From Escherichia coli (lineage in GTDB: Bacteria > Pseudomonadota > Gammaproteobacteria > Enterobacterales > Enterobacteriaceae), in assembly GCF_003334385.1 (NCBI RefSeq), contig NZ_QOWN01000011.1: DNA of 64,000 nt; one strand, written 5' to 3'. Positions within the stretch are counted from its first letter, which is position 1, and each line of letters opens with the position of its first letter. The position numbers were made by a program, and so were the translations under genes. Shown here piece by piece: positions 59,991 through 60,771 of this stretch. Under the pieces are notes generated by a model. That model was given only the letters and a program-made list of their open reading frames with translations, did not search any database and was not told where the DNA came from.

Positions 59991-60203
59991 TTATTGGGCG
60001 TTTTCAGTTTCTTCATCGCGACGACGAATAATCAACCCCGCCAGCCAGAAACTAATCACCCACGTCACCAGACCGACGGCATAGGTCTGCCAACCTTTTG
60101 CTTCAAATCCCAGTAACCCCACCACGCCATTAAGAATGAATATAAGGCCAATGGCGAACGCATAGTAGTGCCAGTCACGGCGGATTTTTACAGGCAGATT
60201 CAT
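59991..60203 (-). CDS. yaiZ: Small membrane protein YaiZ
   Basis: 70-aa protein starting MNLPVKIRRDWHYYAFAIGLIFILNGVVGLLGF with two predicted TM helices; internal start within the supplied ORF 59991..60335. Confidence 0.8.
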   Translation of the reverse strand: MNLPVKIRRDWHYYAFAIGLIFILNGVVGLLGFEAKGWQTYAVGLVTWVISFWLAGLIIRRRDEETENAQ

Positions 60204-60462
60204 GGCAGCTCCGTTAACGAAAAACAACATCCTTGCATATTCTGCAACAACCGTCTGTGGTGTAGACAACATTTTCGTAATTGTTAATAAATTTAACTTA
60301 AGGTTGCCATTTTGTGACTCACAACGAAGATTCACGCTTCGGGAATATTCCCAACATCAATTTACCATGATTCTGATATTGACAATCTAAATGACCTGTC
60401 AGACTTGCCATAAGCCGCTGGTATCACACCAGAAGAGAAGCAGATGACTTCCGGAGGTTTTT

Positions 60463-60771
60463 ATGGCTGATTTCACCCTGTCAAAATCGCTGTTTAGCGG
60501 AAAATATCGCAATGCCTCTTCAACGCCTGGCAACATTGCCTATGCGTTGTTTGTGCTGTTTTGCTTTTGGGCTGGGGCGCAATTGCTGAACCTGTTAGTG
60601 CATGCGCCCGGCGTCTATGAGCGTTTAATGCAGGTCCAGGAAACAGGTCGCCCACGGGTGGAAATTGGTTTAGGTGTCGGCACCATTTTCGGGCTGATCC
60701 CGTTTTTAGTAGGCTGCCTCATTTTTGCAGTGGTGGCGCTATGGCTGCACTGGCGACATCGCCGCCAGTAA
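60463..60771 (+). CDS. yaiY: Inner-membrane protein YaiY
   Basis: 102-aa [43 protein letters not shown]... with two hydrophobic segments. Confidence 0.85.

Follow-up and report, generated by a model that had tools for sequence, protein, structure and literature searches.

The divergent small membrane protein genes yaiZ and yaiY of Escherichia coli: probably independent neighbours with separate predicted promoters

The divergent genes yaiZ and yaiY of Escherichia coli probably encode two unrelated and independent two-helix membrane proteins that are expressed from separate promoters, with yaiY under the control of the Rcs system. We put the probability of this reading at about 60%. Both are already known, annotated E. 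coli core genes. They lie in the 64,000-nucleotide stretch of E. coli DNA that was analysed (the 'window'; from contig NZ_QOWN01000011.1 of RefSeq assembly GCF_003334385.1), whose numbering is used throughout. A first-pass annotation of this DNA had suggested that the two genes could form a stress-responsive module. One half of this proposal stands, as yaiY is a published member of the Rcs response; the other half, a single module driven from a shared region, is not supported, as the regulatory footprints between the genes appear to be separate.

The yaiZ open reading frame (59991-60203, minus strand) specifies a protein of 70 amino acids and that of yaiY (60463-60771, plus strand) one of 102 amino acids. 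The divergent intergenic region (60204-60462) is 259 bp long with a GC content of 40%. Sizes, orientation, spacing and coordinates are exactly those given in the first-pass annotation, and its gene names agree with the Pfam matches, with existing annotations and with the 100% identity of the 1-kb yaiZ-yaiY region to MG1655. This region is present in 5423 of 5426 complete E. coli genomes, where it is annotated yaiZ/yaiY and is located between ddlA and yaiW. Three plasmid records from complete E. coli assemblies also contain the chromosomal region 59900-60900; these may be F-prime-like or misassigned replicons. On the far side of ddlA (58873-59967), in the iraP/ddlA interval, RefSeq includes a 67-amino-acid 'hypothetical protein' (WP_001300163.1) at 58592-58795 on the minus strand.

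YaiZ matches the Pfam family DUF2754 over its full length (E=6.6e-49; residues 1-70 on model positions 1-70), as does YaiY the family DUF2755 (E=3.2e-49; residues 1-101 on model positions 1-100). Both are high-scoring members with no differences from their families, which are defined by YaiZ and YaiY themselves and carry no functional information. Each is a two-helix inner-membrane protein. The two transmembrane helices initially proposed for each are confirmed by Kyte-Doolittle hydrophobic segments (residues ~12-36 and 40-60 of YaiZ, ~24-48 and 65-99 of YaiY) and by AlphaFold2 secondary structure, which is consistent with two hydrophobic helices in both. AlphaFold2 places helices at residues 22-47, 49-60 and 66-101 of YaiY alone, with low confidence (pLDDT 65, pTM 0.33); the loop between the two membrane helices of this protein is conserved. 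LacZ and PhoA fusions put the C-terminus of YaiZ in the cytoplasm, and IPTG-induced YaiZ-GFP showed a normal membrane localisation; the protein does not depend on YidC and served that study as a well-behaved control (PMC3225971).

YaiZ is strongly conserved. Across 17 genera its RRDWHYYA motif is invariant and its transmembrane helices are glycine-rich. The mean pairwise p-distance over 78 species is 0.13 for YaiZ, lower than that of DdlA (0.17), and 0.31 for YaiY, which therefore evolves more than twice as fast as YaiZ. No biochemical function is assigned to either protein in the papers found. Neither has an NCBIfam family above cut-off or a relative in PDB sequence searches, and PADLOC gives no match at the locus. 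The description of both as functionally uncharacterised thus holds for the papers found and for all three of these resources.

Small inner-membrane proteins induced by two-component systems include MgrB, SafA, AcrZ and MgtS, which are mostly single-helix proteins of fewer than 50 amino acids with a defined partner. YaiY and YaiZ resemble them, by analogy only, in being small, membrane-embedded and induced by a stress pathway and in having no enzymatic domain. They differ in having two helices, a length of 70 to 102 amino acids and no known partner. Our best guess, by comparison with many small membrane proteins, is that each may modulate a larger membrane protein.

Both families are very small and are confined to Enterobacteriaceae and their close allies. 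YaiZ was found in 155 of 100,044 species genomes scanned. Each family comprises about 250 clusters among 5.8 billion proteins: the YaiZ profile identifies 256 clusters, with PF10953 in all 120 of the matches listed, and the YaiY profile gives 61 hits against 1.84 billion representatives, most of them fragments or variant members of that family. All hits with an organism name are from Enterobacteriaceae. In every one of the 79 retrieved loci whose sequence extends upstream, yaiY lies next to yaiZ in divergent orientation and the order sbmA-yaiW-yaiY-yaiZ-ddlA is kept; the same arrangement occurs in more distant Raoultella, Buttiauxella, Cronobacter and further lineages. Because the entire five-gene neighbourhood is syntenic, the adjacency of yaiZ and yaiY alone says little about function. 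The length of the intergenic region varies from 221 to 284 bp in 79 species loci and reaches at most 406 bp in the more distant ones.

YaiZ is accompanied by YaiY wherever it occurs (84/84 loci). The pair is not obligate, since in three lineages (L089, L090 and L093, the last being Apirhabdus apintestini) a diverged yaiY lies between ddlA and yaiW/sbmA and tblastn detects no yaiZ. One of these, L090, also lacks yaiW, as do L029 and L071. Detectable relatives of yaiZ are absent outside the lineages that contain yaiY and are missing from some of those. Either yaiZ is a recent gene of restricted distribution, which emerged in the space separating ddlA from the yaiY promoter, or it has been lost repeatedly.

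For footprinting, 80 intergenic regions were aligned, distant loci were then added and 84 orthologous regions were compared. Upstream of yaiY, which has a GGAGG Shine-Dalgarno sequence at 60453-60457 (plus strand), the most constant feature is a predicted extended -10 (TGTCAGACT, 60397-60405, plus strand) with the pattern TGnCAnAnT. It was found in 83 of 84 loci by scanning, and in the sole exception the same motif is located just beyond the scanned range. Only the n positions vary, while the distance to the ATG ranges from 36 to 89 nucleotides. An invariant motif at a floating distance from the start codon suggests an extended -10 followed by a free leader and would place the yaiY transcription start site (TSS) near 60412, which corresponds to about 394,713 on the minus strand of U00096.3. 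The three yaiZ-less lineages have equivalent -10 hexamers with the same spacing. A simple scan of 59900-60900 for canonical sigma-70 promoters returned none, which is consistent with promoters of the extended -10, activator-dependent type.

Two further elements keep their distance to this -10. The first is a near-invariant block, AAATTACCAnnAWTCYGATATTGACAAT (60358-60386, plus strand), located at a fixed 37 bp in 82 of 84 loci. It contains a perfect TTGACA (60379-60384) and a 14-mer resembling half an RcsB box (TACCATGATTCTGA, 60363-60376). This proximal 14-mer occupies positions -49 to -36 from the predicted yaiY TSS and agrees with the consensus at 6 of 8 positions, in the right half-site only. 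The second is a distal dyad similar to an RcsB or RcsAB box (CGGGAATATTCCCA, 60340-60353, with GGA-N4-TCC at 60341-60352), whose centre is at about -65.5 from the predicted TSS. In 68 of 84 loci RGA-N4-TCY occurs exactly 55 bp before the -10, its half-sites conserved and its N4 freely variable. It matches 7 of the 8 specified positions of TNRGAN4TCYNA, the E. coli mismatch being at position 1, and its core, GAATATTCC, is also that of the RcsAB box. In Salmonella arizonae/diarizonae and the Pseudescherichia group the dyad occurs in degenerate form. The three yaiZ-less lineages keep the dyad, the block and the -10, which are therefore assigned to yaiY alone.

The consensus used here, TNRGAN4TCYNA, is that of the RcsB box and was checked on two known Rcs promoters of MG1655, those of rprA and osmB. 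Both fit: the rprA box (TGAGACGAATCTGA) lies at -49 to -36 from the annotated 5' end, where it abuts the -35, and that of osmB (TAAGATGATTCCTG) is also upstream. A strict scan of the whole window with this consensus gave no matches and is thus uninformative. Like rprA and osmB, yaiY is induced through Rcs, by RcsB overexpression and by envelope damage that activates the system, and it has a conserved, box-like GGA-N4-TCC dyad. Its TCTGA half-box occupies the same place, -49 to -36, as the rprA box. The differences are that the rprA box is centred at -42.5 whereas the best yaiY dyad is centred at about -65.5, and that the proximal element of yaiY consists of one half-site only. Judged from these footprints, RcsB would most likely act at the dyad, at the proximal 14-mer or at both.

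Two other promoter assignments were considered and rejected. A sigma-E promoter at the TCTGA of 60372-76 has no GGAACTT-like -35 at 15-16 bp and the stretch is not conserved. A -10 inside CTGATATTGACAAT, which would move the dyad to about -40, has no fitting -35, and the invariant TGnCAnAnT 20 bp downstream is conserved in the way expected of a genuine extended -10. Further upstream, in 66 of the 84 loci, a TGTGA pentamer (60313-60317, plus strand) precedes the yaiY -10 by a fixed 84 bp, with the dyad 29 bp after it. It could be a CRP half-site: the corresponding 22-mer is centred at 60320.5, about -91.5 from the predicted TSS, and its second half-site is weak, matching at 2 of 5 positions (7/10 in total in E. 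coli). Kluyvera lacks the pentamer, and the yaiZ-less loci do not preserve its spacing. The E. coli TGTGA lies in a local palindrome, TGTGACTCACA (60313-60323), of which other genera conserve only the TGTGA(C) half.

A separate set of conserved elements precedes yaiZ. Its Shine-Dalgarno sequence (GGAG, 60209-60212, minus strand) shows up as conserved CTCC columns when the intergenic regions are aligned. Upstream of this is a predicted extended -10 with the pattern TGnNANNAT (TGCAAGGAT, 60229-60237, minus strand) and a predicted weak -35, CAGACG (60252-60257, minus strand), inside the conserved CCACAGAC. The TGnNANNAT pattern with a 17-bp spacer to a conserved CAGACG was found in 78 of 85 loci, 19 to 36 nucleotides before the ATG. 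This arrangement suggests that yaiZ has its own promoter, with a TSS near 60222 and a leader of about 18 nucleotides. The part of the Cappable-seq data covered, from cells in M9 glucose, contains no yaiZ-sense TSS between U00096.2 393,395 and 395,178, as would be expected under glucose repression or if expression is just low. The yaiZ frame can be extended upstream as far as a GTG at 60335 (59991-60335, minus strand; 114 amino acids), and many database entries for YaiZ are versions of 90, 93, 110 or 114 amino acids. We favour the 70-amino-acid start because its Shine-Dalgarno sequence is conserved and the extension is not conserved and lies upstream of the predicted TSS.

The predicted start sites of yaiZ and yaiY are some 190 bp apart, and it is only to the yaiY -10 that the dyad and block keep a constant distance. 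Joint regulation of the two genes from their common intergenic region, as implied by the module proposal, is thus not what the footprints indicate.

Published expression data exist for both genes. By qRT-PCR yaiY was induced 17.9-fold on RcsB overexpression and 16.3-fold on sigma-E overexpression; the microarray values were discordant with these and were considered a likely artefact by the authors (PMC2731931). The sigma-E effect is probably indirect. With colicin M, yaiY rose by log2 3.9-5.2 and is listed among Rcs-regulated genes (PMC3599342). An inhibitor of LolCDE induced it 37- and 50-fold, beside osmB, bdm, wca genes and spy (PMC5105897). Rcs induction of yaiY is therefore published and its responsiveness to stress is not new. 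A phenotype of the yaiY knockout in stop-codon readthrough was not reproducible. The gene yaiZ is not found in the available parts of the Rcs-induction tables of the same three papers (PMC2731931, PMC3599342 and PMC5105897). It has been named as an OxyS target in a published list. In Cronobacter its expression is log2 5.4 lower in M9 than in LB, in a list that also includes mglBAC, tsx, lldP and glpQ. One microarray study has yaiY and yaiZ in the same list, changing in the same direction, together with osmC and osmY.

The Cronobacter result, the one expression hint of CRP control at this locus, suggests that yaiZ behaves there like a glucose-repressed gene: mglBAC, tsx, lldP and glpQ are cAMP-CRP-dependent genes. 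In the list shared by yaiY and yaiZ, osmC, osmY and others are sigma-S dependent. A study of sRNA51 in carbapenem-resistant Klebsiella pneumoniae reportedly mentions yaiY three times.

Our preferred reading, of independent neighbours, can be set out as follows. The two genes would lie side by side through vertical inheritance of the sbmA-yaiW-yaiY-yaiZ-ddlA block and not as the halves of a two-part system, and each would use its own extended -10 promoter. The Rcs envelope-stress phosphorelay would switch on yaiY: RcsB, possibly with RcsA or another partner, would bind the GGA-N4-TCC dyad, the half-box block immediately preceding the -35, or both, with a layout resembling that of the rprA promoter. 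YaiY would thus be delivered when the integrity of the peptidoglycan, the lipoproteins or the outer membrane is disturbed. From its own promoter and with its leader of about 18 nucleotides, yaiZ would respond to other inputs, such as growth medium or catabolite state, stationary phase and possibly OxyS.

A different explanation is that YaiZ and YaiY genuinely function together, as a hetero-oligomeric membrane complex or as antagonists, with the intergenic region between their genes co-ordinating the two. We consider this unlikely. The genes do diverge from one intergenic region, as expected of a pair sharing an operator, and wherever yaiZ exists it is strictly adjacent and divergent to yaiY; as noted, five-gene synteny makes this adjacency of little information. 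No sites are common to both promoters as judged by the predicted start sites, the regulatory footprints being split into two promoters, and co-occurrence is not obligate, with yaiY alone in three lineages. The two genes do share one microarray list, although the Rcs datasets, as far as their available parts extend, give yaiY only. Since they share this list and YaiZ is never found without YaiY, a looser functional link is possible.

At the protein level, both proteins have cytoplasmic termini, so that a four-helix bundle is conceivable. YaiZ and YaiY have no similarity to each other in BLASTP (E=12). When fused through a flexible linker and modelled with AlphaFold2 from a paired alignment of 36 species, they form four transmembrane helices with a pLDDT of 59 and a pTM of 0.30. 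This weak test, which uses a shallow alignment of 36 rows and pTM only, gives no confident assembly of the two proteins and lends a complex no support. Mirror-tree comparison of 78 loci indicates a mild correlated evolution in favour of a pair (r=0.56, partial r=0.38), with YaiY as the best partner for YaiZ among five neighbours. This correlation is no higher than those of DdlA-YaiW (0.55) or YaiW-SbmA (0.63), and co-evolution measured in this way is not discriminating.

The 3' ends of both genes raise another alternative: that the main role of yaiY and yaiZ lies at the RNA level, where their induced transcription would interfere with the convergent neighbour in the manner of an excludon. This we regard as distinctly improbable. 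Several observations point towards it. According to ExcludonFinder, the transcripts of yaiW-yaiY and of yaiZ-ddlA overlap convergently in 50% or more of E. coli RNA-seq samples, and in many species the overlap extends to the coding sequences themselves: those of yaiY and yaiW overlap tail to tail by 4-16 nucleotides, with no gap, in 56 of 88 loci, and those of yaiZ and ddlA by 4-15 nucleotides in 23 loci. The ddlA terminator hairpin (59974-60002; z = -5.2 on the plus and -4.4 on the minus strand) holds the yaiZ stop codon (59991-59993). A Cappable-seq TSS at U00096.2 393,395 (plus strand; RRS 15.6) maps to about 60954 on the minus strand of the window, within the 3' part of yaiW. The mapping uses an offset of 776 bp between U00096.2 and U00096.3, which is our assumption. 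Transcription from this TSS would read through the REP sequence described below and antisense into yaiY. As an example of an RNA-level effect, expression of the SbmA/YaiW peptide-uptake proteins could be lowered during Rcs stress.

Against a main role at the RNA level is the strong purifying selection on both proteins (the p-distance of YaiZ, as given above, is below that of DdlA, and many residues are invariant), which implies that the proteins themselves matter. Moreover, yaiW is missing in some loci, and E. coli has opened a gap of 58 nucleotides between yaiY and yaiW. This gap contains a degenerate REP (60782-60818) between the convergent 3' ends of the two genes, an element already indicated just after yaiY in the first-pass annotation. 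It is recognised by a match with 3 mismatches to a REP core pattern at 60786-60816 (0 expected by chance), by a sub-threshold match to Rfam naRNA4 at 60747-60813 (30 bits, the gathering score being 59.5) and by a weak predicted hairpin at 60782-60812 (z = -1.4).

A more specific version, in which the two genes form a stress-controlled excludon pair, with yaiY opposing sbmA-yaiW (peptide uptake) and yaiZ opposing ddlA (D-Ala-D-Ala supply), is a long shot. The listing of both convergent pairs and the 3' overlap of coding sequences in many species resemble known excludons. The locus differs in that the divergent yaiZ/yaiY pair is not listed by ExcludonFinder as a divergent excludon and in that reciprocal regulation is here only conjectured. 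If true, Rcs-driven transcription of yaiY would lower the antimicrobial-peptide importer SbmA/YaiW during envelope stress, possibly in addition to functions of the YaiY and YaiZ proteins.

Finally, that yaiZ or yaiY is a small membrane toxin of a locus resembling a type I toxin-antitoxin system is suggested by the small hydrophobic products and by nearby antisense transcription, but it is extremely improbable given the normal membrane localisation and good behaviour of IPTG-induced YaiZ-GFP as a control, the two transmembrane helices and 70-102 amino acids (above the typical size of type I toxins), the single-copy core status in 5423 of 5426 genomes and the lack of a PADLOC match or an Rfam antitoxin RNA.

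As it stands, the finding that yaiZ and yaiY are probably independent neighbours matters little, in that both are annotated core genes and the stress response of yaiY is already published. Its additions are modest. The comparative map of two predicted promoters supplies precise candidate sites: the dyad, the block and the two extended -10s. YaiZ, a protein of 70 amino acids, is better conserved than DdlA. Some lineages have a yaiY that is older than yaiZ or has survived its loss, evidence against an obligate pair. Should YaiY or YaiZ turn out to modulate an envelope machine during Rcs stress, this would fill a single small gap in the picture of the Rcs regulon, although it would not open a new field.
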